A stretch of DNA of 64,000 nucleotides from Akkermansia muciniphila (lineage in GTDB: Bacteria; Verrucomicrobiota; Verrucomicrobiia; Methylacidiphilales; CAMAQI01). Each line of letters starts with the position of its first letter. Within the stretch, counting starts at the first letter, position 1. Shown here piece by piece: positions 2,803-25,366 of the stretch. The stretch is from NCBI GenBank assembly GCA_945883905.1, contig CAMCYL010000001.1, positions 2,088 through 66,087 of the forward strand. The letters are read 5' to 3'. The position numbers and the translations under genes are program-made. The notes beneath the pieces are model-generated. The model made no database searches. It was not told the origin of the DNA and saw only the letters and a list, made by a program, of their open reading frames with translations.

Positions 2803-3906
2803 TTATTTTTTCTTCGAGTAAAACGGTTTTTGAATAATCTCAATCGGGACCCGGGTTCCGCGTACTTCGAGATCGAGTTTGGTTCCGATGGTTTTGAAAT
2901 CGGAGTCTACATAGCCCATTCCGATGCCGATACCGAGCGTTGGGGATTGACTTCCGCTCGTGACCTCTCCGATTTTCCGATCGCCGGAGTAAATCGGATA
3001 ATGAGCACGAGGCGGGGCCGATTTTCCGATCGGTTTAAAGGCAATTAAGGTCGAGGGAATCCCTTTCTGAGCTTGAGAAATGAGGATTGATTTTCCGGGA
3101 TAGGAACTGGTTTTCGTCAAAGAGACAAATCGACCAAGATCGGCCTCTAAAGGGGTACGATCCGGAGAGAGATCGTTTCCATTCAAGGGATAACAGGATT
3201 CAAGTCGTAACGTATCTCGCGCTCCGAGACCGGTCGGTTTGAGTCCATCGGCTTTTCCGATTTCGAGGAGTGTCGTGAAGAGAGAGGAAACAGTTTCGGC
3301 AGAGATAAAGAGTTCAAATCCATCCTCTCCCGTGTAGCCAGTTCGTGCGATGAGGACTGTGTTCTGATTCCAGACGGTTTCAACGATGCGACTCCGTTTA
3401 GGAATTTCCAGATTTGGGATGAGGAGCTTAAGGATTTTCTCCGAAAGCGGACCTTGAAGGGCGACGGCGCCGTAGTCATCACTGGCGTTATCAAAGGAGA
3501 TTTTGGGTGGGAGATGTTTTTGAATCCAAAGGGCATCCTCTTCGATCATCGAGGCATTCACAACGAGAAAGTAACGATCAGCGGAGATGCGATAGATAAT
3601 TAAATCATCGATCACTCCCCCTTTTTCATTGAGGAGAAAGGTGTATTGTCCTTGTCCATCGACGATTTTTGAGAGGTCATTTGCGAGAATCGAGTTAAGG
3701 GCTTCGGTCGCCTCATTGCCTTGGATCCAGAATTCACCCATATGGGAGATATCAAAGAGCCCTGCGTGTTGGCGAACGGCCTGATGTTCATCGATGATTC
3801 CGCTGTATTGAACCGGCATGTACCAGCCTGCGAAATCGACCATGCGACCGCCAATGGATTCATGAGTTGCGGCAAGGGGAGTTTTTTGAGGAGTTGAGTT
3901 CGACAT
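2803..3906 (-). CDS. gcvT: Glycine cleavage system aminomethyltransferase (T protein)
   Basis: Translation ...GGRMVDFAGWYMPVQYSGIIDEHQAVRQHAGLFDISHMGEF... is classic GcvT. I place the start at ATG 3906 (MSNSTPQK), not the listed 3966, which would overlap galM. Confidence 0.9.
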   Translation of the reverse strand: MSNSTPQKTPLAATHESIGGRMVDFAGWYMPVQYSGIIDEHQAVRQHAGLFDISHMGEFWIQGNEATEALNSILANDLSKIVDGQGQYTFLLNEKGGVIDDLIIYRISADRYFLVVNASMIEEDALWIQKHLPPKISFDNASDDYGAVALQGPLSEKILKLLIPNLEIPKRSRIVETVWNQNTVLIARTGYTGEDGFELFISAETVSSLFTTLLEIGKADGLKPTGLGARDTLRLESCYPLNGNDLSPDRTPLEADLGRFVSLTKTSSYPGKSILISQAQKGIPSTLIAFKPIGKSAPPRAHYPIYSGDRKIGEVTSGSQSPTLGIGIGMGYVDSDFKTIGTKLDLEVRGTRVPIEIIQKPFYSKKK

Positions 3907-3962
3907 GAGCGAAATGATTAACAGGCAATTTGAATGGGGAAAGCAGGAAATAGAAATTATTA

Positions 3963-5009
3963 TCAAAAATGGAAATAATATTGGGTTTTACTTTGGAAGG
4001 TCTCCCCCGGTCTGAGGATTGTCTTCGGAAAATGAGGCTGATTTGGGCTATCGGGGTAGTGTTGGGTCTCGAGACAAAATCCGCTGCGAAATCGATAGGG
4101 ATTCCCGGATTTTCCAATCAGAGAGCCGTCGAGGAAGTTTCCGCTATAAAATTGTACTCCAGGTTCGGAGGATCTAACCTCCATTTGAATGCCTGAAGTG
4201 GGGGCGGTAACTTTTGCGACTTTAAAGAGACCGTTCGACTCTTTTTCTTGCGTTAAAATCAGATTATGATCGTAGCCCTGTGCGAACTGGAGTTGGGGGG
4301 CGGCAGTATCGATCTCTTTGCCGATCGTTTTTGGCTGAAGAAAATCGAAGGGGCTGTTTTGCACAGAAAGAATTTCTCCTGTGGGGATTAAATTGGAGTT
4401 TATAGGCGTAAACTGCTCTGCAAAAAGCTGTAACTGATGATCTAAAATCGAGGGATGACCTTCTCCTTCAAGATTAAAGTAGGTGTGATTCGTCAAATTG
4501 ATCGGCGTGGCACGATCCGTTGTTGCCTGATATTCGATCTCTAGCGTGTTTTTTTCAAGGACTCGATAAATCACCTTCACATGAAGATTTCCGGGATAGT
4601 TCTCCTCTTCCTCTGGACTAAAGTGAGTCAGAGTGAGTGTGGGGACTCCTTCAATTACAGCAGCGGTGGCATCCCAGAGATGTTGATCAAATCCTTTAAT
4701 GCCTCCGTGGAGGTGATTCTTTTTGTTATTCGTCGCAAGCCTGTACCATTTTCCCTCTAGCAGAAACTTTCCTTTTGCGATTCGATTTGCAAAGCGTCCG
4801 ATTATTGCGCCGAAGAAGGCATGAGAAGAGGCCTTCGTATAATCGGTGAGTTGTGAGTAACCGAGCGCCACATCGATGATTTTTCCAGAAGTGCAAGGAA
4901 TTTGAAGCGAAGTGATAATTCCACCGTAGTTTGTGATTTTAACCGTCATTCCAGAACGGTTTTTAAATGTAAATAATTTTGCAAAGCCAAAGGGACTCTC
5001 GGAGATCAT
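3963..5009 (-). CDS. galM: Aldose 1-epimerase (galactose mutarotase)
   Basis: 348 aa with the mutarotase motifs NRIAKGKF, HLHGG..GFD, TNHTYFNL and CLETQHYPDSPN. Confidence 0.85.
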   Translation of the reverse strand: MISESPFGFAKLFTFKNRSGMTVKITNYGGIITSLQIPCTSGKIIDVALGYSQLTDYTKASSHAFFGAIIGRFANRIAKGKFLLEGKWYRLATNNKKNHLHGGIKGFDQHLWDATAAVIEGVPTLTLTHFSPEEEENYPGNLHVKVIYRVLEKNTLEIEYQATTDRATPINLTNHTYFNLEGEGHPSILDHQLQLFAEQFTPINSNLIPTGEILSVQNSPFDFLQPKTIGKEIDTAAPQLQFAQGYDHNLILTQEKESNGLFKVAKVTAPTSGIQMEVRSSEPGVQFYSGNFLDGSLIGKSGNPYRFRSGFCLETQHYPDSPNQPHFPKTILRPGETFQSKTQYYFHF

Positions 5010-5337
5010 CCTTTAGATCTATCTTCAAAAAATGAGCGGACAATATTTATTAGAAAATCGAGATTATCCCCTCGGAAATCGAAAGTGAGTCTGGGCTTTC
5101 TCCCCATCGGGGCGTCGGTCTCAAAATCCAGTGTAGAAAAGGCAGGGGCTGATGGGCTATTGGGCTGTTAGGCTCGGAGTTTGAAAACCGATTAGCGGCA
5201 TCGATGTGGGGTGGATTAACTGTTTTTATTTCGATCCGTCATTTCGAAAGCTTTATTGTTTCGTGATTTCTGAAAAAATAAGTGGCGAGTTTTAAGAATG
5301 CTGATATCGGTAGTTTCAAATTAACCAAGGATATTGA

Positions 5338-5988
5338 ATGACTCATTGGACTCCCGATCAACTCTTGCAATCTCTTCAATGGCGTTATGCGGTAAAACAA
5401 TTTGATGCGACGAAAAAAATCTCTGAATCCGTTTGGAGTGTTCTCGAAGAGGCTTTGGTGTTAACACCCTCCTCCTTCGGATTACAGCCGTGGAAGTTTT
5501 TGGTGGTCACGGATAGTGCGGTACGTCAACAGTTGATGGTGCATTCATGGAATCAACCGCAAGTGGTTGATTGCTCTCATCATGTTGTTTTTGCAATCCA
5601 TAAAAACCTCGGGGAGGCTCAAATTGATCGTTTTTTAAATTCGACCGCAATCACCCGCGGGATTCCGCGTGAAAGCTTGGATGGTTATCGTGGAATGATG
5701 GTCGGAAATCTTGTTCAAGGCCCCCGGAGTGCGATTATTAATGAGTGGGCGACCTTTCAATCTTATATTGCCCTTGGAAATTTCATGACTTCTGCGGCGG
5801 TGATCGGAGTCGATACCTGTCCGATGGAGGGGATTGATGCCGGAAAATATGATGAAATTCTTGGACTCCTCGGTACGGAGTATCAAACGGTTGTTGCTTG
5901 TGCTGCTGGGTATCGAGCCTCGACCGATAAATATGCAAGCTTAGCCAAGGTTCGTTATCCGAAGTCGGAACTCATTCAGCGGATTTAA
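5338..5988 (+). CDS. NAD(P)H nitroreductase family protein
   Basis: 216 aa with the N-terminal RYAVKQFD motif and the overall nitroreductase-fold pattern (SSFGLQPWKF, DTCPMEG). Confidence 0.8.
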   Translation: MTHWTPDQLLQSLQWRYAVKQFDATKKISESVWSVLEEALVLTPSSFGLQPWKFLVVTDSAVRQQLMVHSWNQPQVVDCSHHVVFAIHKNLGEAQIDRFLNSTAITRGIPRESLDGYRGMMVGNLVQGPRSAIINEWATFQSYIALGNFMTSAAVIGVDTCPMEGIDAGKYDEILGLLGTEYQTVVACAAGYRASTDKYASLAKVRYPKSELIQRI

Positions 5989-6032
5989 TTTTCTCGCTCC
6001 AGTGTGCTGTATCAAGTTAGGGTGAGGGGATT

Positions 6033-7079
6033 ATGGCACGGGTTCTTTACGCAGTGATGGGAAATACGCATGGGCATATCATGCGAACTCAGTCTATTGT
6101 CAGCCGACTTCCTCATCATGAGTTCTATTTTGTGGGAGGAGGACGCGTTCCTGCGGCATTTGCTCAAAACTATCCGGTGCTTGAAGTTCCAGTTTTACGA
6201 ACTGTTCATAAGAATCAGACGGTTTCCGTTTGGGGGGTGATTCAGCAGATTTATCAATGTTTGAGATCGATCCCCAAAGTGCGTCGTCAAATCTTAAATC
6301 TTGTTCAGGAATGGAGGCCCGATGTTGTGATTGTTGACCGGGAGTTTTTTACTCCGATTGCTCTTTTGGGACAGAGGATTCCTGTTTTGGGAATCGATCA
6401 CTCCCATGTCATGAAAGCATGCGACTATCCAGTTCCCTCCGATCAGTGGCTCTCATGGAGTTTGGCGATGTTGAATGACTATATGCTTTTTGATTTCACT
6501 CGGAAAAATCTTATCGTCTCTTTTTTTCATCCCCCTCATAAAAGAGGGAATCAGGATGAACTTTTTCCTGCGATCGTTCGTCCGGAGGTTCCGCGAGTTC
6601 AACCTCGAAATGGCGACTACATTTTACTTTATCAAACCAGCAATACCTTTGGAGCGCTCTTAGAGGTGATGAAACAACTTCCCCGTCGAGTCGTTGTTTA
6701 TGGGTTTCGCAATGAGCATGTGGTGGAGGGGAGTATCACTTATAAACCATACGATCCAGAGGCGATTTTAGAGGATCTCGCGGGATGTCATTATGCGGTG
6801 GTGAATGGCGGTCATAATTTGATTTCGGAGGCTCTTTTTTACGGGAAACCGGTTTTCTGTTTTCCGATCAAGATGTTATTTGAGCAATATATCAATGCTT
6901 GGCATGTACGGGCTTTAGGATACGGCGATTTTTCCACAACCCGAGAACCGAAAGCGGCGTTGTTTTTGGACTTTGAATTGAAGGTTGAAGCGGCGAGAGA
7001 GCGGATTTGTGTCGAGTTTCATGAAGGAACCGATTTATTAGTGAAGCGAGTGGATCAGTTCATTCAGACCCGTTCATGA
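6033..7079 (+). CDS. Glycosyltransferase, MJ1255/VC2487-like (GT-B fold)
   Basis: N-terminus MARVLYAVMGNTHGHIMRTQSI and C-terminal GGHNLISEALFYGKP resemble the MurG-like uncharacterised glycosyltransferase family. ATGA overlap with the next gene. Confidence 0.6.
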   Translation: MARVLYAVMGNTHGHIMRTQSIVSRLPHHEFYFVGGGRVPAAFAQNYPVLEVPVLRTVHKNQTVSVWGVIQQIYQCLRSIPKVRRQILNLVQEWRPDVVIVDREFFTPIALLGQRIPVLGIDHSHVMKACDYPVPSDQWLSWSLAMLNDYMLFDFTRKNLIVSFFHPPHKRGNQDELFPAIVRPEVPRVQPRNGDYILLYQTSNTFGALLEVMKQLPRRVVVYGFRNEHVVEGSITYKPYDPEAILEDLAGCHYAVVNGGHNLISEALFYGKPVFCFPIKMLFEQYINAWHVRALGYGDFSTTREPKAALFLDFELKVEAARERICVEFHEGTDLLVKRVDQFIQTRS

Positions 7080-8329
7080 AAATCGCCTATATCACCTACC
7101 AATATCCGACCTTGTCACAGACCTTTATTCAAAGAGAGATCAAGAGCGTTGCCGCATTAGGATTGGAAATTGAGGTTCATGCGATGCGGGGGAGAGCGAT
7201 TCCTTTCGATCATTTCATTCCTCCAGGGGTAGTTATTTATCCTTTTTCACTTCTGCGATTATGGACCCTCATTTACAAAATCCCTCAGGAGCTGTTTCGA
7301 GATCCTGCGCTGATCGTTCGTGGAATTCAATTTCTTCAAGGCAAGCGTTGGCGGGGTTTCGATGATTTTTTAATCAATCTTTTGGGGATCGGATTTGCCT
7401 TTGCGACAGTCGATCGATTTCGTCAGTCGGAGGTTGATCATTATCATGGGGTTTGGGCGACGGGGATGACGACCGCAGCTGCACTTTTAGCGAAGATGAC
7501 GGGTAAGCGATTTAGTATGGGGGCTCATGCTTTTGATCTCTATCGACATGGCGGGGATTCTTTTTTGAAAGAGAAATTGGCTCGTGCGGTGTTTATTCAT
7601 ACCACGACGGAGGCGAATGTTCGTTATCTTCGGCATTTGGTTCCTCAATCCAACGTGATCCTTTCACGGCGGGGTTTAGAGTCCCTTCCGGATCTTTCGC
7701 TGAAGAAATCAAATTCCTGTTTCACGATTTTATCGGTGGCGCGATTGGTTCCTAAAAAAGGACTCGAATATCAAATCAAGATCTGTCAGGAGCTCAAACG
7801 ACAGGGTTTTCCCTTTATTCATCGGATCATCGGAGAGGGGACACTTCGTGACGGGTTACAAAAAGAGATTGAGGCGGCGGGGCTTCAAAAAGAGATTCAA
7901 CTCCTCGGTGCACTTTCTCAAAAAGAGGTTCAAGAGTACTATGCTCAATCCGATCTATTTTGGCATACAGGCCTTGTCGATGCGGAGGGGGATCGAGATG
8001 GACTTCCCAATGTCATTCCAGAGGCCTTTTCTTGGGGGCTTTGTGTTTTGAGTAGTCCGACTCCCGGTGCCGATGAGGCCGTGCTCCATGGGGAGACCGG
8101 TTGGATTTCCGATCCCCGACAAATCGAAAGCACGGCGCGTGCGATTCAGGAGTTGGCGGTGAACCAGGAGTTACGTCAGAAGTTAGGGGAGGAGGGACGT
8201 CGATGGGTCGAAGCGCATTTCATGAGCTCACAAAATGCGATGATTTTAGAGAAGGCCTTTAGGGAATTCTCTTTGTCAGCATCGCTTGAATCTGTCGGGG
8301 ATCACCTCTCATATCCAACACACCAATAA
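7076..8329 (+). CDS. Glycosyltransferase family 4 (GT1-type)
   Basis: 417 aa. The C-terminal domain has the EGDRDGLPNVIPEAFSWGLCVLSS...GETG motif (E-x7-E type). Confidence 0.8.
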   Translation: MKIAYITYQYPTLSQTFIQREIKSVAALGLEIEVHAMRGRAIPFDHFIPPGVVIYPFSLLRLWTLIYKIPQELFRDPALIVRGIQFLQGKRWRGFDDFLINLLGIGFAFATVDRFRQSEVDHYHGVWATGMTTAAALLAKMTGKRFSMGAHAFDLYRHGGDSFLKEKLARAVFIHTTTEANVRYLRHLVPQSNVILSRRGLESLPDLSLKKSNSCFTILSVARLVPKKGLEYQIKICQELKRQGFPFIHRIIGEGTLRDGLQKEIEAAGLQKEIQLLGALSQKEVQEYYAQSDLFWHTGLVDAEGDRDGLPNVIPEAFSWGLCVLSSPTPGADEAVLHGETGWISDPRQIESTARAIQELAVNQELRQKLGEEGRRWVEAHFMSSQNAMILEKAFREFSLSASLESVGDHLSYPTHQ

Positions 8330-11090: not shown

Positions 11091-12204
11091 TTATTCATTA
11101 TCAGGATCGGCATCGGAGCGTTTTTTTCCACGGAGAAAGGCTTCGATGAAGGCATCGAGGTCGCCGTCCATGACCCCTTGAACGTCGGTGGTTTGTTCGC
11201 CTGTACGTAGATCTTTGACCATTTGGTACGGTTGGAAAACGTAGGAGCGAATTTGACGCCCCCAACCGATCTCCCCTTTTTCTCCGTAGAATTTCTCCAT
11301 TTCGGCACGCTTTTTATCCATCTCCATTTCGTAGAGACGCGATTTGAGGACCTTTAGCGCAGAGGCTTTATTTTTGATCTGAGAGCGTTCGTTTTGACAG
11401 GTGGCGACGAGCCCCGTCGGGATGTGTGTGACGCGAACGGCTGAATCGGTGGTATTGACCCCCTGTCCTCCGTGTCCACCAGCCCGATAGACATCGGTGC
11501 GGAGATCTTTTTCATCGATGACGATATCGATATCATCATCGACCTCAGCGATCACATCGAGGGAGGCGAAGGAGGTCTGACGTTTTCCTTGAGAATTGAA
11601 TGGAGAGATACGAACAAGTCGGTGGACACCTCGCTCCGCCTTGAGATGTCCATAAGCGTATTCTCCTTTAATAAAAAGAGCGGCCATTTTGATTCCGGCC
11701 TCTTCACCCGAGAGAATATCCATGAGTTCGACCGTAAATCCGCGTCGTTCACAGAACCGTTGATACATTCGTAAGAGCATATTTGCCCAATCGCAGGCCT
11801 CCGTTCCACCAGCACCGGAGTGAAGCGTGATGATAGCATTATTATGATCGAACTTTCCGGAGAGGAGGACTCGAAGTTCAAAGGCATTGAGATCTTTCTC
11901 AAAACGATCGTATTCCTGAGAGAATTCCTGAGCGGCTGCTTCCGACCCATCCTCTTTTGTGAGTTCTTCGAGAACGTGGAGATCAGCGATTCGTGTCTCA
12001 AATTCTCCGAAGGGAAGAATTTTTGACTTTAATATCTTAACTTCGAGGATTAGCTTTTGCGCTTTTTGGTTATCATTCCAGAAGTCCTGATTGGACATTC
12101 TTCCTTCAAAATCGATGAGTTCTTTACGGAGTGTATCCAAGTCAAAGAAACCTCTTGAGTTGAGCTAAACGGCTTTCCATGACAGAGAGATCGATATTGA
12201 TCAT
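11091..12204 (-). CDS. prfB: Peptide chain release factor 2, requires a +1 frameshift
   Basis: The main ORF (11091-12140) is RF2 (SPFNSQGKRQTSF, GGHGGQGVNTTDSAVR with GGQ). A short frame-0 ORF, MINIDLSVMESRLAQLKRFL-TGA (12204-12142), joins it through CTT TGA C. Confidence 0.95.
12141..12156 (-). other. Programmed +1 ribosomal frameshift site of prfB
   Basis: The minus strand reads AAGAGGTTTCTTTGAC. This is an SD-like AGAGG, a 3-nt spacer, and then the canonical CTT-TGA-C slippery/stop context. Confidence 0.9.
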
Positions 12205-18125: not shown

Positions 18126-19661
18126 ATGAGTAAGATTGTCATTCTCGATTTCGGTTCACAGTTTACGCAGGTCATTGCCCGACGGATTCGGGAGTTGAAT
18201 GTCTTTTCCGAGATTGTTCATCATCATACCTCTTTAGAGAAAATTAAGGCGATGAAACCGAGTGGGATTATTCTCTCGGGGGGACCTGCAAGTGTTTACT
18301 CAGAAAAGGCCCCTCATCCGGATTTAGGGGTTTTTGAGCTTGGAGTGCCTGTTTTAGGGATCTGTTACGGGATGCAACTCATGGGATTTCATTTAAAGGG
18401 GGGGGTTCAAAAGTGCGATCGTCGTGAGTATGGACGGGGAACCTTGAAGGTTAAAAAAACAAACCCGTTGTTTACAGGACTTCCTCGTACCCTTGAGATA
18501 TGGAATAGTCATGGAGATCGACTCACTCGTTTGCCTAAAGGCTTTGAGGTGATTGCAGTGAGTGAAAACGCCCCTTATGCGGCGATTCAAGATTCGAAAC
18601 GGCAGTTTTTTGGATTACAGTTTCATCCTGAAGTTTCCCATACTCCTCGCGGAAAAGAGATTTTAAAGAATTTTGTGATTGGAGTTTGTAAGGCCAAGCC
18701 AGATTGGACAATGAAATCTTTCATTGATAAAACCTGCGCGGAGATTAAGCAAACGGTAGGGAAGGATCGTGTTATTTTGGGACTCAGTGGAGGCGTTGAT
18801 TCGAGCGTTGCAGCGGCTCTTTTGCATCGTGCGATTGGGAAGCAGTTGACCTGTATTTTTGTTGATAATGGATTGCTTCGTTTAGGAGAACGGGATGCCG
18901 TTCAAGGGTACTTTCAACGCGGTTTAGGCATTAAGTTAGTGACCGAACAGTCGGGGCCCCGTTTTCTTAAAAAGCTCAAAGGAGTCACCGATCCAGAGAA
19001 AAAAAGAAAGATCATTGGTGGAGAATTTATTCGGGTTTTTGAAGAGGCGATGAAGAAAGTGGGGCAAGCGAAGTATCTTGCTCAAGGGACCCTTTACCCG
19101 GATGTGATTGAGAGCGTGGCGATTGGGAACAATCCTGCCTCGGTGATTAAAAGTCATCATAATGTGGGAGGACTCCCCAAGAACATGAAGTTTAAATTGG
19201 TGGAGCCGCTTCGTCAGCTTTTTAAAGATGAAGTTCGCAAAGTGGGGGAGCAACTAGGATTGCCTGAGGAGATCGTTTGGAGGCAACCGTTCCCTGGACC
19301 GGGATTAGCCGTGCGTTGTCTTGGGGCTATTGAACCGGAGAAACTTGAAATTTTACGTAAAGCCGATGCCATTGTCATTGAGGAAATTAAGAAGGCGGGA
19401 TGGTATTATAAAGTTTGGCAATCCTTTGCGGTATTACTTCCAGTGAAGAGTGTGGGAGTGATGGGAGATGAAAGAACTTACGACTACACCATTGCACTTC
19501 GTTGCGTTGAAAGCCAAGATGGAATGACGGCGGATTGGGTTCGACTTCCTCAAGAATTACTCGGCAAGATCTCCTCTCGAATTATCAATGAGGTCCGCGG
19601 AGCGAATCGAGTGGTTTATGATATTAGCTCGAAGCCTCCTGCCACGATTGAGTGGGAATGA
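18126..19661 (+). CDS. guaA: GMP synthase (glutamine-hydrolysing)
   Basis: GATase ([14 protein letters not shown]) plus ATP-PPase (LSGGVDSSV) domains, and a C-terminal ...[10 protein letters not shown]. Start placed at ATG 18126 ([13 protein letters not shown]). Confidence 0.95.
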
Positions 19662-19706
19662 TTCGTTTGCGTTGAAGCGTTATCAAATTTGTCTCGATTT
19701 TTATCG

Positions 19707-19731
19707 GGAATAAATCATCGTTCTGCTGTCT
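19707..19731 (+). promoter_or_regulatory. Candidate ECF-type promoter upstream of the sigma gene
   Basis: GGAATAAA-N-TGTCTC (GGAAT 19707-19711, 16-nt spacer, GTCT 19728-19731). It is nearly identical to the motif at 21007-21030. The -10 element ends 3 nt before the ATG, which implies a leaderless or very short leader. Confidence 0.4.
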
Positions 19732-19734
19732 CAC

Positions 19735-20250
19735 ATGAATAATCAACATCCAGTGGAGTTTGAAAGCGTGGTCGAGACTTATTATTCATCCCTTTTTCGT
19801 TTCGGAATCAGTCTTTCAGGTCGAGAGTCTGACGCCTCTGATTTGACTCAGCAAACCTTTTTGATCTGGGCTCAAAAAGGAGATCAACTTCGGGATTTCT
19901 CAAAGGTAAAAACGTGGCTTTTTACTACTCTCTATCGGGAGTTTTTAAGATCGAGACGACGTGAGAAGAGTCATCCGAGTCAAAGTTTGGAGGAGATGGA
20001 GATTGAGTTGCCTGAGGTGACCGCTTCATCCTTTGAAGAGATGGATGGGGTGAAGGTTGTGGAGATTTTGAACGGTTTAGATCTGGTTTATCGTGAGCCT
20101 TTGACTCTTTTTTATTTAGAGGAGCTCTCTTATAAAGAGATTGCTGAGATTTTGGAAATCCCGATAGGAACCGTGATGTCTCGACTCGCACGGGGAAAGG
20201 GTTTGATGAGAAAGCGGTTGGAGAAAGATTTTAAGGGGGGAGAAGAATGA
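19735..20250 (+). CDS. ECF (group IV) RNA polymerase sigma factor
   Basis: 171 aa. Region 2 (DLTQQTFLIWAQK...WLFTTLYREF) and region 4 (LSYKEIAEILEIPIGTVMSRLARGK) are both present. Confidence 0.85.
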   Translation: MNNQHPVEFESVVETYYSSLFRFGISLSGRESDASDLTQQTFLIWAQKGDQLRDFSKVKTWLFTTLYREFLRSRRREKSHPSQSLEEMEIELPEVTASSFEEMDGVKVVEILNGLDLVYREPLTLFYLEELSYKEIAEILEIPIGTVMSRLARGKGLMRKRLEKDFKGGEE

Positions 20251-20999
20251 ACCGAGAGCAAATCATTGAGGTGCTTTTGTCGGTTCGTTCCCGCGAAGAG
20301 GGAAAAGGAGATCGAGTTGTTGAAGCTGCTTTTGAGCAGATGGATAAAGACCCAACCCTGAGAGCCATTTGGGAGGAGCAACGTCAATGGGATCAACTTT
20401 TTAAAAAATCGATTCATTCGATTGCAGTCCCGACCGATTTAAAGCAAAGAATCTTGGAGCAGAATCACTCTTCAGGGGATCAGATATCATCGATTATCCC
20501 TTTTCCTCGCTATTTATGGATTCCTTTAGCGGCTGCGGCCTTGGTGATTCTTAGTTTTATCTTTTTTAACTTTCAAGTAGAGAGTGAAAGTCGCGATTTT
20601 GCTCGTTTTGAGGAGAGGGCCGTTGATTATACGCAAGGCTTTTTTATGCTCTCAAAGAAAACAGGGCAACAAAGTGAAGTTCGGGAGTGGCTCAGGAGTC
20701 ATGGAGCTCCCCATTCATTTAAGATTCCCTTTCAAATTGAAGGACTCTCCCAATTGGGATGTCGTCAGGTGAAATTTTGTGGAATCTCCTCCTCGATGAT
20801 TTGTTTTGAAATTGAGGGGAAACATCAAGAGGTTCATCTTTTTATTGTGGATAAATCCCATCTCGAAAATTTACCCCCTTACGGCGTTCCGGAGGTTCTT
20901 CAGAAGAAGGGAAATGCAGTAGCGCGGTGGACCGATGACAATCATGGTTATATTTTAACGGGAGCGATTACCTTAGAGGAGATGAAATCTTTATTTTAA
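20247..20999 (+). CDS. Putative single-pass transmembrane anti-sigma factor
   Basis: ATGA-coupled to the sigma gene. It has an about 85-aa cytoplasmic N-terminus, one TM helix (YLWIPLAAAALVILSFIFFNF) and an about 140-aa extracytoplasmic domain with 3 Cys. No HxxxCxxC zinc motif. Confidence 0.55.
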   Translation: MNREQIIEVLLSVRSREEGKGDRVVEAAFEQMDKDPTLRAIWEEQRQWDQLFKKSIHSIAVPTDLKQRILEQNHSSGDQISSIIPFPRYLWIPLAAAALVILSFIFFNFQVESESRDFARFEERAVDYTQGFFMLSKKTGQQSEVREWLRSHGAPHSFKIPFQIEGLSQLGCRQVKFCGISSSMICFEIEGKHQEVHLFIVDKSHLENLPPYGVPEVLQKKGNAVARWTDDNHGYILTGAITLEEMKSLF

Positions 21000-21006
21000 T
21001 TATTTT

Positions 21007-21030
21007 GGAATAAAGCAATGGTTTGTGTCT
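21007..21030 (+). promoter_or_regulatory. Candidate ECF-type promoter upstream of the Cys-repeat peptide gene
   Basis: TGGAATAAAGCAATGGTTTGTGTCTCCC: GGAAT, 15-nt spacer, GTCT. It shares GGAATAAA and TGTCTC with the motif upstream of the sigma gene. Confidence 0.4.
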
Positions 21031-21095
21031 CCCAATTTTAGAACTGTTTGGGAATCCTCACAGTTTATTGAAAAAAATAAAACAAGGAGCAGATA

Positions 21096-21380
21096 ATGAC
21101 TAAAACGACACGTACAATGATTGCGGCTGCCGCCGTTGCAGGAATTTTAACTGGAATCTCGGTGAAAACAGCGAATGCAGGAGTTCTTGCTTCAACTGTT
21201 TTAGCGGATGAAAAAGCGAAATGTTCTGGTAAGGATGGGTGTCCTGCAAAAAAAGAGACTCCCGATAAAGATAAAAAAGAGAAACATGCTTGTAATGGTA
21301 AAGAGGGCTGTTCTGGAAAGAAGGAAAAGGAATCTTGCAGTGGCAAAGAGGGTTGCCCTGGTAAAAAAGATAAGAAATAA
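21096..21380 (+). CDS. Secreted Lys-rich peptide with three C-x5-C repeats, a candidate MNIO substrate (HvfA/bufferin-like)
   Basis: AAGGAG lies 6 nt upstream of the ATG. Sec signal MTKTTRTMIAAAAVAGILTGISVKTANA|G. The mature part carries KCSGKDGCPAKK / ACNGKEGCSGKK / SCSGKEGCPGKK. Confidence 0.7.
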   Translation: MTKTTRTMIAAAAVAGILTGISVKTANAGVLASTVLADEKAKCSGKDGCPAKKETPDKDKKEKHACNGKEGCSGKKEKESCSGKEGCPGKKDKK

Positions 21381-21660
21381 TTCTATCGATTTCTAAAGTT
21401 GCAATAAAGCGAGGGCACGGACTCAAGTGGCGTTCGTGGAGGACCTCATCGAAAATGAATCTCTTAGGAAGGCTGGAATTCAGGAAAAATTGATTTGAAT
21501 ATGGAATGGTATTCAATCCAAAATTCGGATTCTTTTTCCTGTTTTCTTGCTTTCCTAAGAGTTCTTTTTTGAATTCTATCATATCCTTTTAATCAATTTT
21601 TTATTGCAATAGAAAGCTCAGATTTTAATTGGAATCGATGAAGTTGATTTAAGATTCATC

Positions 21661-22530
21661 ATGCCTGCAAATCGTTTTAATAATTTCACTGAATACGAAA
21701 TCGGAATTGGACTTCGTGTTCCGCACTATGATCATATTTTATCGGAGCGACCAACCGTGGATTGGTTTGAGATTATTTCGGAGAATTACATGCAGGAGGG
21801 GGGGCGTCCTTTATCTGTTCTTGATCGCATTTTAGAGCAGTATCAGGTCGTTCAACATGGTGTTTCTCTTTATTTTGGCTCTAAGGATCCGTTGAATCGG
21901 ACTCATTTAAAGAAACTTAAAAAACTTTGTCAGCGCACAAAAACTCCGTGGCTTTCAGATCATTTATGCTGGGGAAGTGTGGATGGAACCTATTCTCACG
22001 ATCTTTTACCTCTTCCGTATACCTTAGAAGCGGCGAAGAATGCAGCGAAAAAAATTCGTGAGGTTCGTGACTTTTTAGAAATCCCTATTGCTGTCGAGAA
22101 TGTGAGTAGTTATGCTGAATTTCATTCTTCTGAAATGAATGAGTGGGAGTTTTTGACCGAGGTCGTCGAGCGGGCTGATTGTGGAATTCTATTGGATGTG
22201 AACAATATTTATGTCTCCTCGCAGAATCATACCTTTGATCCCAGAGATTATATTTTAGGAGTGCCTCATCATCGTGTAGCTCAGATGCATATCGCCGGAC
22301 ATTCTAAGTATGAACGATTTATTATTGATACCCATGATCATCCGGTCATCGACCCCGTTTGGGCTCTTTACGATTTAGCGATTCAAAAAGTGGGGCCGAC
22401 AGCGACGCTCTTAGAATGGGATGCTCGTATTCCCTCTTTTCAAGAGGTTCATGATGAGGCAAAGAAAGCGACTCGATATTGGAAAAGTCGAAAAAAGATT
22501 GCGCAAAAAAAACAGAAAAGAGGATCATGA
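21661..22530 (+). CDS. DUF692 / MNIO-family (MbnB/HvfB/BufB-like) iron-dependent peptide-modifying enzyme
   Basis: The full-length DUF692 pattern is present: IGIGLRVPHY, WFEIISENYM, QHGVSLYFGS, WLSDHLCW, LLPLPYT, AVENVSSY, LLDVNNIYVSSQNH, HIAGH, IDTHDHPV, LLEWD. Confidence 0.85.
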   Translation: MPANRFNNFTEYEIGIGLRVPHYDHILSERPTVDWFEIISENYMQEGGRPLSVLDRILEQYQVVQHGVSLYFGSKDPLNRTHLKKLKKLCQRTKTPWLSDHLCWGSVDGTYSHDLLPLPYTLEAAKNAAKKIREVRDFLEIPIAVENVSSYAEFHSSEMNEWEFLTEVVERADCGILLDVNNIYVSSQNHTFDPRDYILGVPHHRVAQMHIAGHSKYERFIIDTHDHPVIDPVWALYDLAIQKVGPTATLLEWDARIPSFQEVHDEAKKATRYWKSRKKIAQKKQKRGS

Positions 22531-23423
22531 ACTCCCTTGCTCAAATCCAAAAAGACTTTTTAAATTGCGTAAAATCTCCTTTGAATTCAAAAGATCGGAT
22601 TCAACTGAATCCGAAGGGGGTTCAATGGGTAAAGTCGGAGATGAAGCCGAATGATCGATTGAGTGGAGAGGCACGTATAGAGATCTATGCCCGACAATAT
22701 TGGTTTCGAATTTTAGAGTCCCTTTATGACGATTTTCCAGGATTAAGAGCGTTGATGGGGGATCTTGCCTTTGAGCGATTGATCCGAGAATATATCGAAA
22801 AATACCCCTCACGCTCCTATACCTTACGTGATTTTGGGAATCGATTGCCTGCTTATATTCTAAAAGAAAAAAAACGATATAAAACGAATTCAATCCTTTA
22901 TTTTCAAATGGCAACCATGGAGCTTGCTCAACTTCATGTTTTTGATGAAAAAGAGGAAAAGCCTTTGAGTTCAAAGAGTTTAGGGTCGAGACCTTTGAAT
23001 CGTCGTTTTCAGATTGCACCTCATGTTCGTTTGATGATTTTAGATTATCCGCTCGATGAATTGCAGTTAAAGTTAAATCAAGGCGGGGTTCGTGAGCAGT
23101 TGAGTAATGGGGTTTTAGATCGACGATTGAGAACTAAATGTCGATTGATCGTTGGAAAACTTCAAAAAGAAAAGGTTTTCCTAGCGGTGCATCGACATCA
23201 GTATCGGGTTTATTTCAAAAGAATGGAGCCTTGGGCATTTGAATTATTACAGAGTTTAGAATCGGGAAAACCGTTGGGGAAAGCGATCGAGATCGTGTTG
23301 AGTCAGAAGAAATATTTAAAGCAGGGAATTTCTGATCGTGTTGGAGATCAATTTCGAGAGTGGTCTGCCTTGGGGTGGATTCAAATATTAAAATCAAAAA
23401 CGACTTTCTTCAAGTCTCAGTAA
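22527..23423 (+). CDS. DUF2063 protein (HvfC/BufC-like partner of MNIO enzymes)
   Basis: ATGA overlap with the DUF692 stop. The N-terminus IQKDFLNCV...IEIYARQYWFRILESLYDDFPGLRALMGDLAFERLIREYIEKYPSRSYTL matches the DUF2063 pattern. Confidence 0.75.
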   Translation: MNSLAQIQKDFLNCVKSPLNSKDRIQLNPKGVQWVKSEMKPNDRLSGEARIEIYARQYWFRILESLYDDFPGLRALMGDLAFERLIREYIEKYPSRSYTLRDFGNRLPAYILKEKKRYKTNSILYFQMATMELAQLHVFDEKEEKPLSSKSLGSRPLNRRFQIAPHVRLMILDYPLDELQLKLNQGGVREQLSNGVLDRRLRTKCRLIVGKLQKEKVFLAVHRHQYRVYFKRMEPWAFELLQSLESGKPLGKAIEIVLSQKKYLKQGISDRVGDQFREWSALGWIQILKSKTTFFKSQ

Positions 23424-23855
23424 CGCTTTTTTAATTTTGAGTCCACCGGCATATCCAACAAGTTCTCCTTTTTGACCTAGGACGCGGTGACAAGGAACGA
23501 GGATCATCCATGGATTTTGATTACAGGCCCCTCCGACCGCTCTAGAGGCTTTTGGGGATTCGATGGTTTGAGCGATCTCTCCATAACTACGAGTTTCCCC
23601 GTAAGGAATTGATTGAAGAGTTTTCCAGACCTTTTGTTGAAAAACGGTTCCCTCTGAATTTAACGGAAGATCAAATTTTTTAAGATCCCCTTTGAAGTAT
23701 CGATCGAGTTGATGGATTGCTTCACGAAGGAGGGGGGAGGTCGGTGCCTCTGCTTTATTTTCTGAGAGAACAAATTGAACCGAGAGGATCGTTTGCGGTG
23801 TACCGAGGATTTGGATTCTTCCCAGAGGGGAGAGGAAGATTGCCGAAGCGATCAC
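23394..23855 (-). CDS. ogt: Methylated-DNA--protein-cysteine methyltransferase
   Basis: 153 aa with the active-site PCHRV and IPYGETRSYGEIA motifs. Confidence 0.9.
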   Translation of the reverse strand: MIASAIFLSPLGRIQILGTPQTILSVQFVLSENKAEAPTSPLLREAIHQLDRYFKGDLKKFDLPLNSEGTVFQQKVWKTLQSIPYGETRSYGEIAQTIESPKASRAVGGACNQNPWMILVPCHRVLGQKGELVGYAGGLKIKKALLRLEESRF

Positions 23856-25366
23856 TCCGGTTTTCCGGCGCCGAAAACGTAATCGGGAAATTCGTATCGG
23901 GAGGTTTTTGAAAGTCCTTTGATGAAGTCGTTTAAGACTCTGCTTTGATAGCTGTTTGAGAGCCGAGATTCAATCATCGGTTGGATTTTTTTAAATTCCT
24001 CTGGATTTCCCTGTTTTTGTCCCTCGAAAAAGGCAATGACACCGCCGTTTGAATTCGGTTTGAAGGAACTGACTTGTCCCACTTGAAGCTCTTGGGAGAG
24101 AGAGACCCAGAGATTCATATCTGGATCTTTTTGATTTGGCTCGGCTGGTTTAAATTCCGGAATCTCTTGAACGGTGAGTTTAGAGGCGGAGGCCGCTGCT
24201 TTAAAGGGAGTTCCGGATTTAACTGCCTCGTGAAGTTTGATGGAAAGAGCCTCTCCTTGGGTTCGAGTGGATTCTGCGGATTTACGGTCAGAGATCATTT
24301 TTTTAAGAACAGGGGAGACGAGGGGAAGGGGTTTGAGTGTGGCTGGAGTGATATTGAGGAGTTGGATGACATAGAACCCATCTTCAAGTTCAACGGCGGA
24401 ACTGACGGCGTCCTCTTTGGAGAGTCTAAAAGCAGCGCGATTAAAGTGAACACTTGGAGGAAGGGGGGTGGCTGCCCCGGAAAGCGTGAAAAAACCGGTT
24501 TTTCCAGAGGTGGCCCCTTCGGCCGTAGCGATTTTTTGAAATTGTGTCACATCACGGTTTGAGTAGAGCTTCGTACTGAGATTTTGTGCCTTTTCTGCAA
24601 GACGAACTTTAACCTCTGACTTCTCTTTTTCGTTCAATTTGAGTTCTGCAGGAGAGAATCGATACGAGGCAAAAGCAACCTCTCGAAGTTCTTCCGTCAT
24701 TAGGGCAGGATCATTGAGTCGTGCCTCATATTCCTTTTGAATCTCCTCAGGGGTAACGATGATTCCACTTGTATTTAAAGGAAGACGAATGACGGAGAGC
24801 TTTACAGGTCCCATCATGCGGTTAAAGAGATTGAGAGATTCTTGAGCAGAGACCTTAACGGATCCGATGAGAGAAAGTCGAAATTGGTCGACGATGAGTT
24901 GTTCTCGAACAATTTGTTCAAATCGAGTAGAGCTAATTCCTTGGCTTCCTAGAAATCCACGAACGAACTGTTGATAGTATTCGGCTTGGTATTTGCCCTC
25001 TTTTTGAAAGAAAGGGAGTTTTTTAATATAATCGATCACCTCTTGATCGCTCACACGAACTCCTGCTTTTTGAGCTTCAGCAAGGAGCGAAAGATGAATC
25101 CAAGTCATTCGCATGATTTGATTGCGGGTATTTTCGTTATCTGGGGCTTGTCCACCGCTTTCGATCTGATACCAAAGAGACATTCCTTGAAATGCGACCT
25201 TGAAGTCATCAAAGAGATAGTTTTTACCATCGATCTTGCCCGCCTTGTTGTTGGGGCTCATGACATCTAATGCGCTGATATTAAAAAATAAAGCAAAGGA
25301 GAAAAAAAGAAGAGTAAAGAATAGAATCATCATCCATTTGGACTGTTCGCGTAAGAAGGTAAGCAT
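23852..25366 (-). CDS. PpiD/SurA-like periplasmic chaperone (membrane-anchored)
   Basis: N-terminal TM helix (WMMILFFTLLFFSFALFF), a SurA_N-like region and a parvulin-like remnant (DGFYVIQLL). Start placed at ATG 25366. ATGA overlap with ogt. Confidence 0.7.
   Translation of the reverse strand: MLTFLREQSKWMMILFFTLLFFSFALFFNISALDVMSPNNKAGKIDGKNYLFDDFKVAFQGMSLWYQIESGGQAPDNENTRNQIMRMTWIHLSLLAEAQKAGVRVSDQEVIDYIKKLPFFQKEGKYQAEYYQQFVRGFLGSQGISSTRFEQIVREQLIVDQFRLSLIGSVKVSAQESLNLFNRMMGPVKLSVIRLPLNTSGIIVTPEEIQKEYEARLNDPALMTEELREVAFASYRFSPAELKLNEKEKSEVKVRLAEKAQNLSTKLYSNRDVTQFQKIATAEGATSGKTGFFTLSGAATPLPPSVHFNRAAFRLSKEDAVSSAVELEDGFYVIQLLNITPATLKPLPLVSPVLKKMISDRKSAESTRTQGEALSIKLHEAVKSGTPFKAAASASKLTVQEIPEFKPAEPNQKDPDMNLWVSLSQELQVGQVSSFKPNSNGGVIAFFEGQKQGNPEEFKKIQPMIESRLSNSYQSRVLNDFIKGLSKTSRYEFPDYVFGAGKPE

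Follow-up and report, generated by a model that had tools for sequence, protein, structure and literature searches.

Bufferins are a class of RiPPs, described in 2024-2025, in which two enzymes convert cysteines of a small secreted peptide to metal-binding rings. The bufferins of Caulobacter carry 5-thiooxazole modifications and are exported by Sec; copper induces both of its clusters, buf1 and buf2, which are under the control of an ECF sigma factor, and buf2 does without doxX, DoxX being dispensable (PMC11626156). Repression by NrsF requires two periplasmic Cys (PMC3511200). Antoine et al. report sigma genes in Buf1 clusters and not in Buf2 clusters. In the oxazolin system of Haemophilus, the precursor HvfA has 95 aa with a 24-residue signal peptide, three AEGKCGEGKCG repeats and six modified Cys (PMC11252979). 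The oxazolone/thioamide chemistry that the original prediction for the present locus quoted for HvfA is now assigned as 5-thiooxazole (10.64898/2026.07.17.739211).

Here we describe five co-directional genes on the + strand (19735-23423) of a 64,000-nt stretch of DNA, which we call the window. All ORFs were verified at these coordinates, and the five-gene arrangement that had been predicted, including both ATGA couplings, was found as claimed. We think it likely that these genes form a RiPP cluster of the bufferin type (bufA-bufB-bufC, no doxX), governed by an ECF sigma/anti-sigma pair encoded in cis. What would be new is an unclassified, repeat-type peptide together with a dedicated stress-sensing sigma/anti-sigma switch that has a promoter ahead of the peptide gene. 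Among the neighbouring genes inspected, we were not able to find a copper-homeostasis gene adjoining the cluster, which counts against this reading.

The gene at 21661..22530 (+) encodes a BufB-type MNIO (DUF692) enzyme, with 364 bits for PF05114 and 354.5 bits for NF050167 (MNIO_BufB, the NCBI bufferin-maturase equivalog), above the cut-off of 310. The assignments HvfB, ApyH, ChrH and MbnB were rejected, as the enzyme misses the cut-offs of all four; its sequence matches in the PDB are 3bww, TglH and MbnB. Residues H66, D100, H101, E146, D179, N182, H210, D223, H225 and E252 are invariant. Across 71 homologues there is no variation at any residue that aligns with a metal site of MbnB, TglH or 3bww, and the iron ligands are complete. 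The stop codon of this gene overlaps, as ATGA, with a BufC-type partner gene (22527..23423, +), whose product has a DUF2063 N-terminal and an RRE-like C-terminal domain. The partner scores 62 bits against PF09836 DUF2063 (cut-off 27.2) and has 3463 homologues, part of them named HvfC/BufC chaperone; its AF2 model (pLDDT 87.9) matches TglI (8hi7_A) and NGO1945 (3dee) in Foldseek. The predicted DUF692 and DUF2063 assignments thus pass the curated HMM cut-offs, and for the partner the confident structure model gives further backing.

Upstream of the enzymes we find the bufA-like precursor peptide of 94 aa (21096..21380, +), preceded by an AAGGAG ribosome-binding site. Its N-terminus, read by eye, is Sec-like: Lys3, Arg6 and the hydrophobic run MIAAAAVAGILTGISV are followed by A-N-A and then G, and the predicted signal peptide covers residues 1-28 (21096-21179, +). 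The Lys-rich core of 66 aa (21180-21377, +) holds 18 Lys and 6 Cys and has a pI of 9.06. The Cys (residues 43, 49, 66, 72, 81 and 87) form three separate C-x5-C pairs, where BufA2 has two triplets, and lie in three C-x-G-K-[DE]-G-C units (21222-21242, 21291-21311 and 21336-21356, +). We were not able to find any match to the precursor among the Pfam and NCBIfam profiles, including BufA1, BufA2 (NF050166), HvfA and DUF2282. The profile searches proposed with the original prediction were positive for the DUF692 and DUF2063 models and negative for the BufA1, BufA2 and HvfA peptide models. With enzymes past the BufB and DUF2063 cut-offs, the notion of a bufferin/RiPP system with a divergent substrate is supported; the missing precursor-model match and the paired Cys pattern of the peptide count against a bufferin. 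Direct search found 18 homologues of the precursor, and a family profile brought the family to 366 clusters or more at 50% identity. Its members almost always lie immediately 5' of BufB/BufC. Repeat number among relatives varies from 2 to 4, and the family grades into canonical BufA2 via hybrid forms.

The precursor and MNIO genes are separated by a 280-nt spacer whose RNA folds into a long, stable hairpin with a U-run at its end (21449..21573, +; MFE -87.8 kcal/mol, z = -6.3). It has no match in Rfam, and most of 36 related loci have a similar structured spacer. Probably the hairpin acts as a leaky terminator or stabilises the transcript; since its U-run partly pairs with an upstream A-run, it departs from a textbook terminator.

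The association of peptide and enzymes extends to other genomes. Our GTDB sample comprised 77 ORFs that carry the motif and whose N-terminus resembles a signal peptide: BufB follows immediately 3' in 60, 6 could not be judged and 11 stand alone without BufB. The A-B-C order, with the peptide upstream of BufB/BufC, is fixed and spans many phyla, and the trio is also retained in loci L003, L004/5 and L006. Enzymes 72-76% identical to the window BufB adjoin canonical or hybrid BufA2 cores. As far as gene neighbourhood was at issue in the original prediction, the peptide is indeed kept beside DUF692 and DUF2063 in near and far relatives. The five-gene arrangement is not a matter of chance, since shuffled windows yield the Cys motif 0.00 times and its linkage to BufB/BufC in public genomes is tight.

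The first gene (19735..20250, +) encodes an ECF sigma factor with sigma-2 and sigma-4 regions only (Pfam Sigma70_r2 PF04542 and r4_2 PF08281; 66.4 bits for TIGR02937, cut-off 42.9). Translation may in fact begin at GTG 19768, given that the -10 element directly adjoins ATG 19735; this GTG has a GGAG ribosome-binding site, and in the relative L002 the gene is called from the equivalent GTG. The ATG of the next gene (20247..20999, +) overlaps the sigma stop as ATGA. It encodes a single-pass membrane anti-sigma factor candidate of 250 aa with a single hydrophobic helix at about residues 88-107, for which we suggest a cytoplasmic helical N-terminal domain, a transmembrane helix and a periplasmic alpha/beta domain. 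Its residues C172, C186 and H197, predicted to be periplasmic, are invariant in alignment columns from six close relatives; a sensor role for them is a guess, because the structure model is poor (pLDDT 49). Similarity to DUF3379 is weak (20.9 bits, under the cut-off of 33.2). An identification as NrsF was rejected, the candidate having one transmembrane helix and PF06532 being a six-helix protein. In metagenomes, the sigma factor has 542 or more relatives at 50-61% identity, and in 73 of 80 sampled related loci a protein of the same anti-sigma type follows the sigma gene. Genes of the buf type are close by in only 2 of the 80 metagenome loci, the surrounding genes being unrelated and PVC-type. 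The sigma/anti-sigma group is large, PVC-wide and usually without buf linkage, and could therefore govern a wider or different regulon. Its linkage to buf genes has come about in no fewer than two gene orders, with the pair ahead of bufABC in the window and L111 and behind it in L110, L157 and L159.

Control by the sigma factor is backed by more than adjacency, because both the sigma and the peptide gene carry the same promoter motif. The window has two occurrences of the ECF-type pattern GGAATAA-N15/16-(C/T)TCxxA, compared with 0.01 expected by chance, and the full pattern gave 37 matches in the 1.92 Mb scanned. One copy (GGAATAAA-N13-GTCTCAC; 19707..19734, +) lies ahead of the sigma gene, of which it is the probable autoregulatory promoter; the second (21007..21034, +) lies about 60 nt 5' of the precursor start codon, and the spacing between the boxes differs by 1 base between the copies. 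The element also precedes the sigma genes of L002, L111 and 45 out of 80 related sigma loci. Among 84 precursor ORFs, 22 have a GGAATAA box 84-140 nt 5' of them, followed by a -10-like element; 20 of these ORFs come from GTDB records that bear Verrucomicrobiota lineage names, the other 2 (L004 and L005) from untitled JGI metagenome contigs. In these 22 loci the promoter is present ahead of bufA even at 65-73% GC, where GGAATAA is rare, and in L110, L040, L048 and L019 it is also found 5' of doxX. In L041, the closest relative in GTDB, the peptide gene lacks an upstream sigma pair and yet the promoter is kept. The ECF sigma control that had been predicted is supported by the shared motif, and is qualified by the finding that the pair lies beside buf genes in few lineages only.

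Potentially, the pair could be a general PVC envelope-stress module that merely lies beside bufABC, with the peptide cluster otherwise regulated or constitutive. The many sigma relatives, the anti-sigma partner kept where buf genes are mostly absent, the unrelated PVC-type neighbours and the missing pair in L041 all fit such a module. On the other hand, the autoregulatory promoter form of the sigma group recurs 5' of bufA and doxX, including in high-GC genomes, it persists in L041 despite the missing pair, the linkage comes in two gene orders or more, and Caulobacter buf2 is known to be controlled in trans (PMC11626156); we therefore hold mere adjacency to be quite improbable. It is also unlikely, if slightly less so, that the locus is an oxazolin (HvfA/Buf_EGKCG) system and not a relative of bufferin 2, its peptide being processed as Haemophilus HvfA with six Cys modified. 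The peptide does match HvfA in length and in its three-times-two-Cys layout, and the chemistry of both classes is now considered identical, 5-thiooxazole (10.64898/2026.07.17.739211). The enzyme also reaches 264.6 bits against HvfB, as does the partner 45.4 bits against HvfC, but these values are under the cut-offs of 360 and 142, whereas the BufB cut-off is exceeded; moreover, the EGKCG motif is absent, the Cys are spaced C-x5-C and not C-x4-C, and the nearest enzymes partner BufA2-type cores.

An unmodified peptide, metallothionein-like or polycationic, acting by free thiols or lysines in the periplasm, with another substrate for BufB and BufC, would agree with the Lys- and Cys-rich core, the lack of a precursor HMM match and the stand-alone copies. 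We consider it very improbable, given the position of most such peptides directly 5' of BufB/BufC in fixed order across phyla and the lack of any alternative substrate ORF in the spacer or close by; bona fide bufferins, too, reportedly have stand-alone precursor genes (PMC12452194).

For a sigma-controlled bufferin cluster we propose a mechanism whose chemistry, export route, metal, inducing signal and attenuation are extrapolated from experimental work on the bufferins of Caulobacter and the oxazolin of Haemophilus. In the resting state, the anti-sigma factor with its single membrane pass would hold the sigma factor at the membrane. A periplasmic signal, likeliest copper or another thiol-reactive metal or oxidant, would inactivate it at the domain with the invariant Cys172, Cys186 and His197, and the released sigma factor would drive two GGAATAA-N15/16-TCTCxxA promoters, that of its own gene (positive feedback) and that of the precursor gene. 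The hairpin 3' of the precursor gene would pass part of the transcripts to bufBC, and with partial read-through precursor mRNA should therefore exceed enzyme mRNA. In the cytoplasm, BufC would bind the 94-aa precursor and hand it to the multi-iron oxidase BufB, which would form 5-thiooxazoles by a four-electron oxidation per Cys side chain in the three C-x-G-K-[DE]-G-C units. Sec would then export the modified peptide, the signal peptide would be removed after Ala-Asn-Ala28, and the 66-aa Lys-rich product may buffer excess periplasmic copper.

Compared with known systems, the locus shares with bufferin 1 (DUF2282) and the CxxxxC families (PMC12452194) a Sec-exported precursor 5' of MNIO and DUF2063 partner, and with Buf1 clusters the sigma/anti-sigma genes that are frequent there (PMC12452194); it differs by the lack of a DUF2282 match, by a Cys spacing of x5 and not x4, and by the missing Lactamase_B_2 gene that is common in CxxxxC clusters. 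The SigF-NrsF pair of Caulobacter buf1/buf2 (PMC3511200) is likewise an ECF sigma factor with a co-transcribed membrane anti-sigma factor beside a bufferin cluster, with an autoregulatory promoter and two conserved periplasm-facing Cys (predicted for the window protein). However, NrsF has six helices (PF06532), whereas the window protein has one in 250 aa and weakly resembles DUF3379; the promoter consensus is another one, and the window group is spread across PVC-type metagenome contigs. HvfABC of nontypeable Haemophilus influenzae (Buf_EGKCG; PMC11252979) resembles the locus in its 94-95-aa Sec-signal precursor with three two-Cys repeats, in the processing by an MNIO and a DUF2063/RRE partner and in a repeat-based, probably unstructured design. 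In contrast to AEGKCGEGKCG (C-x4-C), the window repeat is C-S-G-K-D/E-G-C-P-G-K-K (C-x5-C), the window enzymes miss the HvfB and HvfC equivalog cut-offs, and the hvf operon has a DoxX-like gene without a neighbouring sigma/anti-sigma pair.

Bufferin 2 of Caulobacter vibrioides (bufA2-bufB2-bufC2; BUF_6/12Cys or NCBIfam BufA2; PMC11626156, PMC12452194) differs from the window in that the latter's peptide has no BufA2-model match and carries isolated C-x5-C pairs with Lys/Glu linkers, whereas the Cys of BufA2 stand in a folded domain as two C-x5-C-x5-C triplets. The window regulator is also cis-encoded and not SigF/NrsF, with GGAATAA-N15/16-CTCxxA against GTAACC-N16-CGAA for SigF (PMC3511200). 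On the other hand, both have the precursor-MNIO-DUF2063 order without doxX, a Sec-signal precursor (predicted here) with a core of 61-66 residues and six Cys, and ECF sigma control, which we infer for the window; the window enzyme passes the BufB equivalog model. The C-x5-C spacing with Gly/Lys between the Cys recalls CKGKGGC of BufA2, and hybrid precursors connect both types.

The module consists of five co-directional genes on the forward strand (19735-23423 in the ORF listing of the window). The ECF sigma factor (19735-20250) matches PF04542 (region 2), PF08281 (region 4) and TIGR02937 (66.4 bits, cut-off 42.9); only regions 2 and 4 are present, and a match to region 3 was not found in it. 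It is followed by the candidate anti-sigma factor (20247-20999), whose ATG and the stop codon of the sigma gene overlap (ATGA), by the precursor peptide (21096-21380), which has an AAGGAG ribosome-binding site in front, by the MNIO enzyme (21661-22530; PF05114, 364 bits) and by the DUF2063 partner (22527-23423; PF09836), which overlaps the MNIO stop codon, again as ATGA. The precursor gene thus lies immediately upstream of bufB, in the order A-B-C. The original prediction had described these five genes, and the ORF listing and the HMM matches confirm the observation in full; the ECF identity of the sigma factor is borne out by its three model matches, and the ATGA-coupled single-pass membrane protein placed after it is indeed seen, with one predicted helix.

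Housekeeping genes flank the module (guaA, MGMT, a SurA/PpiD-like gene and a cysteine desulfurase gene), and in the relative L002 (handles of this type denote contigs or loci from public genomes and metagenomes) the module is found in another neighbourhood, adjoining pheS. There is no DoxX-like ORF anywhere in the 64-kb window; DoxX follows BufC in L006, in L110 and in roughly half of the loci that could be judged. Since Caulobacter buf2 also lacks DoxX, which is dispensable for modification and function (PMC11626156), its absence was not counted against membership among the bufferins. The GC content of the window falls to 0.41-0.42 over 20-24 kb, the site of the module. All 2-kb bins have a positive GC skew, and the cumulative curve climbs steadily, so that the whole window seems to lie on one replichore. 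A 160-aa ORF antisense to the peptide gene and the spacer behind it (21100-21582, reverse strand) is unsupported and probably spurious. Elsewhere in the window, a release-factor-2-like ORF with a TTG start (11091-12140, reverse strand) seemingly lacks its extreme N-terminus, as expected if prfB has its usual programmed +1 frameshift.

The two enzyme genes encode ordinary BufB and BufC proteins. The MNIO scores 354.5 bits on the equivalog model NF050167 (MNIO_BufB, cut-off 310) and stays below the cut-offs of the equivalog models of HvfB (264.6 vs 360), ApyH, ChrH and MbnB (TIGR04159, 34.5 vs 325). Among solved structures, its sequence matches the DUF692 protein 3bww, TglH (8hci) and MbnB (7dz9). 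Nine residues (H66, H101, E146, D179, N182, H210, D223, H225 and E252) are identical in these alignments and invariant in the 69-71 BufB homologues that we collected; we take them to be the counterparts of the MbnB iron ligands. With this assignment, the iron-binding residue set of MNIO enzymes is complete in the window BufB.

The partner reaches 62 bits on PF09836 (DUF2063, cut-off 27.2) and has 3463 homologues at E <= 1e-10, some of them named "HvfC/BufC family peptide modification chaperone". On the HvfC equivalog model it scores 45.4 and does not reach the cut-off of 142, and a sequence search of the PDB with BufC gave no match. Its structure model (pLDDT 87.9, 49 sequences) has as best Foldseek matches NGO1945 (TM 0.70 on the target) and TglI (E 1.6e-5), which is the partner of the MNIO TglH; the RRE protein TbiB1 is also among the matches, at a non-significant level only. 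The DUF692 and DUF2063 assignments of the original prediction therefore hold, by the cut-offs passed (NF050167, PF05114, PF09836) and, for the partner, by the fold matches to TglI and NGO1945.

The precursor was proposed to be a divergent substrate, and the profile searches agree: it has no match to any Pfam or NCBIfam model. In particular, the BufA2 model NF050166 (cut-off 60 bits) gave no match even at E <= 10, and no Pfam match at E <= 0.1 was found to PF10048 (DUF2282, that is BufA1 with its four conserved Cys). The EGKCG motif is absent from the sequence. Instead, the six Cys (residues 43, 49, 66, 72, 81 and 87) form units of the type C-[SN]-G-K-[DE]-G-C. The precursor is thus outside BufA1 and BufA2 as currently modelled, and is set apart from the EGKCG peptides by its motif and Cys spacing. 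The N-terminus, inspected by eye, has Lys3 and Arg6, a hydrophobic run of 16 residues and Ala-Asn-Ala28 followed by Gly (residues 26-29); it is conserved among the aligned homologues and reads as a putative Sec signal. Full-text literature searches with GKDGC, CKGKDGC, CSGKDGC and GKEGC returned nothing relevant, and a C-x-G-K-[DE]-G-C-type motif was not found in the part of the supplementary data of Antoine et al. (PMC12452194) that we covered.

A search of 5.8 billion protein clusters yielded 18 direct homologues of the precursor. All of them have a signal-peptide-like N-terminus and, except for the Buf2-type homologue P0012, they carry one to four copies of C-S-G-K-D/E-G-C-P/S-G-K-K with Lys/Glu-rich linkers between them. 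The order peptide-MNIO-DUF2063 was seen in the genomic context of all three homologues viewed. With a profile of twelve homologues, 366 clusters were found at E <= 0.001 among 1.84 billion representatives, so at 50% identity the family counts no fewer than 366 clusters. Almost all members have a length of 60-150 aa, and the most frequent Cys spacing, by a wide margin, is C-x5-C.

We also scanned one genome per GTDB species for the back-translated motif C-x-G-K-[DE]-G-C-x-G-K, which occurs in at least 120 stretches. Among the matches listed, 77 motif ORFs have a signal-peptide-like start; a BufB homologue lies directly downstream in 60 of these, six are cut by the sequence end and 11 stand alone without BufB. 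BufC follows BufB in 67 of 77 BufB loci, again among the matches listed. Of the two associations whose conservation the original prediction proposed to check, that of the peptide with BufB/BufC is thus kept, but the sigma/anti-sigma pair is linked to them in only a few lineages. The hosts listed include, within the Verrucomicrobiota, Opitutales, Akkermansiaceae, Luteolibacter and Chthoniobacterales, and outside it Bdellovibrionota, Myxococcota, Planctomycetota, Bacteroidota, Acidobacteriota and Legionella. ORFs from the scan that have no signal peptide, for example the actinobacterial EGCAGKEGC runs of L007, L033, L045 and L114, lack an adjacent BufB and were excluded as false positives. These four loci, from Actinomycetota MAGs, contain long EGCAGKEGCAGKEGC runs without a start codon, signal peptide or nearby BufB; the runs are probably another frame of a repetitive Lys/Ala/Glu-rich gene and not precursors.

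Judging by their motifs and model scores, the precursor peptides form a graded series toward BufA2. At one end is the canonical BufA2 core, CKGxNxCKGKGGC twice, as in the locus L031 (63 bits on NF050166). Next come hybrids, in which one or more CKGKDGC units precede a BufA2 core (L040, L043, L047; of these only L040 was scored, at 38.5 bits), and then pure tandem CKGKDGC runs (L097, with 18.8 bits, and L102). The series ends with spaced units, found in the window, L041 and L111, which have no NF050166 match. Overall, the hybrid and canonical precursors of Opitutales and Acidobacteriota score 36-63 bits and the tandem ones 18-31 bits. BufB proteins with 72-76% identity to that of the window adjoin canonical or hybrid cores (e.g. 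in L084, L080, L110 and L048), which suggests that the enzyme stayed nearly constant and the substrate was altered by gain and loss of repeats. The Verrucomicrobiales precursors end in a conserved KKEG(T/S/E)IL tail (L036, L052, L059, L072, L078, L096, L115 and L122, from Akkermansiaceae, Luteolibacter and Haloferula), with a related EGTFS segment found repeatedly in the linker; these segments could be a sorting or recognition motif.

The 280-nt spacer between the peptide gene and bufB is highly structured (-87.8 kcal/mol, z = -6.3 vs shuffles). It contains a long hairpin at approximately 21449-21573 that ends in a U-run; a simple terminator scan did not flag it, and Rfam has no known RNA in 19400-23900. 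Of 36 related loci, most have a spacer that is likewise structured (z <= -2.5), and a T-run often lies some 40 nt past the stop codon. We read the hairpin as a putative leaky terminator or stabiliser, which would raise the ratio of precursor to enzyme mRNA. In the closest relative, L003, a perfect 17-bp hairpin (AAGGGAGCTTTCCGACT...AGTCGGGAAGTTCCCTT, 1205-1260) directly follows the precursor stop codon, and only the 3' part of the 436-nt spacer (TTCCTAAGAG and the T-run) aligns with the window.

The element GGAATAAA-N12/13-GTCTC has two copies, and no more, in the 64-kb window (shuffles give 0.01): the one at 19707 immediately precedes the sigma gene, the one at 21007 the peptide gene. In the relatives the element takes the form GGAATAA, 15-16 bases and (C/T)TCxxA, and this form is seen in front of the sigma gene of L002 and L111 and of the peptide gene of L002/L003, L041, L110 and L111. 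A relaxed pattern has three matches in the window vs 1.8 expected; taken alone, therefore, only the strict form reaches significance. The relaxed match at 21722 (reverse strand, within the start of bufB) and a match of a looser N13-17 pattern at 13403 (reverse strand, within the start of a forward-strand TPR gene) were treated as chance. Since the -10 box abuts the ATG at 19735, the true sigma start is probably the GTG at 19768; this codon has a GGAG site 9 nt upstream, and the L002 gene call starts at the equivalent codon. The longest-ORF start of the L111 sigma gene falls inside the promoter.

Of 84 precursor ORFs, 22 have a GGAATAA box, with a -10-like element downstream of it, at a distance of 84-140 nt upstream. 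Twenty of these ORFs belong to GTDB records that bear the name of a Verrucomicrobiota lineage and two to JGI metagenome contigs (L004, L005); several of these genomes have 65-73% GC. The full pattern has only 37 matches in the 1.92 Mb scanned, nearly all in such precursor loci, where some matches precede doxX and others, in L004/L005, a divergent operon. L004 has four copies in one locus (3329 and 5901 on the forward, 3747 and 5767 on the reverse strand), at positions identical in L005. They precede the bufA-like gene and the divergent operon, which comprises a 91-aa ORF, DUF3179, a SpoIIE phosphatase, a pyridine nucleotide-disulphide oxidoreductase and a Fer4 protein. This may point to a wider regulon in the organism concerned.

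At least 542 relatives were found when metagenome contigs were searched with an alignment of four orthologues of the sigma factor. Within the top 80 (50-61% identity), an anti-sigma gene of this kind directly follows in 73, GGAA(T/C)A-N15/16-CTCxxA stands just in front of the sigma gene in 45, and bufB/bufC are nearby in only two (L157, L159). The genes around these 80 are of kinds typical of Planctomycetota and Verrucomicrobiota. The pair thus appears to belong to a large autoregulated ECF group, whose putative promoter form is carried by bufA-type genes of Verrucomicrobiota. It is upstream of the buf genes in the window and L111 and downstream in L110, L157 and L159, and the differing order argues for independent linkage of the same pair to buf genes; the linkage arose in a few lineages, with at least two gene orders. 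L110, from a Nibricoccus MAG, reads bufA-bufB-bufC-doxX-sigma-anti-sigma (3534-7479, reverse strand), an arrangement shared in its downstream sigma by L157 and L159; its doxX has its own copy of the element at 5315 (reverse strand).

The membrane protein encoded after sigma is a candidate anti-sigma factor, given this pairing in the best related loci. One membrane helix is predicted at about 88-107, with an N-terminal helical part before it and a C-terminal alpha/beta part after it. The NrsF model (PF06532) has no match in it, and DUF3379 matches weakly (20.9 bits, below the cut-off of 33.2; 23.8 bits for the L110 homologue); a full-text search for DUF3379 gave nothing relevant. A PDB sequence search gave no match, and scanning metagenomes with the anti-sigma alignment revealed no relative; metagenome relatives surfaced only on contigs that had been found via the sigma alignment and were then searched with anti-sigma sequences. 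Besides the window sequence, there are only five close relatives. C172, C186, H197, W228 and D230 in the periplasmic part are invariant in these six sequences, and the proteins of L110 and L111 also have the Cys-Cys-His trio. NrsF requires two periplasmic Cys for repression (PMC3511200), and by analogy we propose that C172, C186 and H197 may sense a metal or an oxidant; as the AlphaFold model from six sequences is poor (pLDDT 48.9), we only infer this role.

Taken by its genes, the locus is a bufferin-type MNIO RiPP cluster, and its mechanism is most likely similar to that of Buf2 and of oxazolin, the modification of which has been reassigned to 5-thiooxazole (10.64898/2026.07.17.739211). Cys residues would be oxidised to 5-thiooxazoles in the cytoplasm, the modified peptide would be exported by Sec, and the product would chelate copper in the periplasm. 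If all six Cys react, as in HvfA, the predicted mass loss is 24 Da; alternatively, a loss of 16 Da together with a disulfide, as in Buf2, is predicted. Three elements appear to be new here: an unmodelled repeat-type precursor family with a graded link to BufA2, a putative ECF promoter in front of bufA throughout the Verrucomicrobiota, and a non-NrsF candidate anti-sigma factor with a conserved Cys2-His signature.

A joint reading of these elements, which we find possible and rather doubtful as a whole, is that the repeat peptides are a distinct class of MNIO products, with an origin in BufA2 and under the control of a PVC-wide ECF sigma factor. The peptides could then be unstructured, Lys-rich strings of independent metal sites of two thiooxazoles each, and the number of repeats (from 2 to more than 10) could set the buffering capacity. 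They could have originated from BufA2 by gain and loss of repeats with the enzyme nearly unchanged, and in Verrucomicrobiota they could be the main output of that sigma factor, with the anti-sigma factor directly sensing copper or thiol stress via its periplasmic Cys2-His site.

No group of MNIO-made RiPPs is larger than the bufferins, which represent a means of coping with copper that has only recently been recognised in bacteria. Current precursor models miss a sizeable repeat-type family spread over many phyla, and NCBI therefore annotates such peptides as hypothetical. The canonical, hybrid, spaced and tandem precursors provide a natural substrate series for working out recognition by BufB/BufC. 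Furthermore, the locus ties bufferin-like genes of Verrucomicrobiota to a widespread ECF sigma/anti-sigma group via a recognisable promoter. This provides a regulon that can be tested, and a candidate for a periplasmic sensor, in a phylum whose regulation is little known.

Among known systems, HvfA, the oxazolin precursor (95 aa, three AEGKCGEGKCG repeats; PMC11252979), has a layout like that of the window peptide but differs in motif and Cys spacing. In contrast to methanobactin, the window partner is a DUF2063 protein and not MbnC, and the precursor has a putative signal peptide and is not of the leader type of MbnA. In Caulobacter, control by SigF and NrsF under copper acts on buf1 in cis and on buf2 in trans (PMC11626156), and sigma/NrsF genes have been reported in Buf1 clusters and not in Buf2 clusters (Antoine et al., PMC12452194). 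The window promoter form differs from the GTAACC-N16-CGAA of SigF, and whereas NrsF is a six-helix protein (PMC3511200), the candidate anti-sigma factor of the window has one predicted helix.
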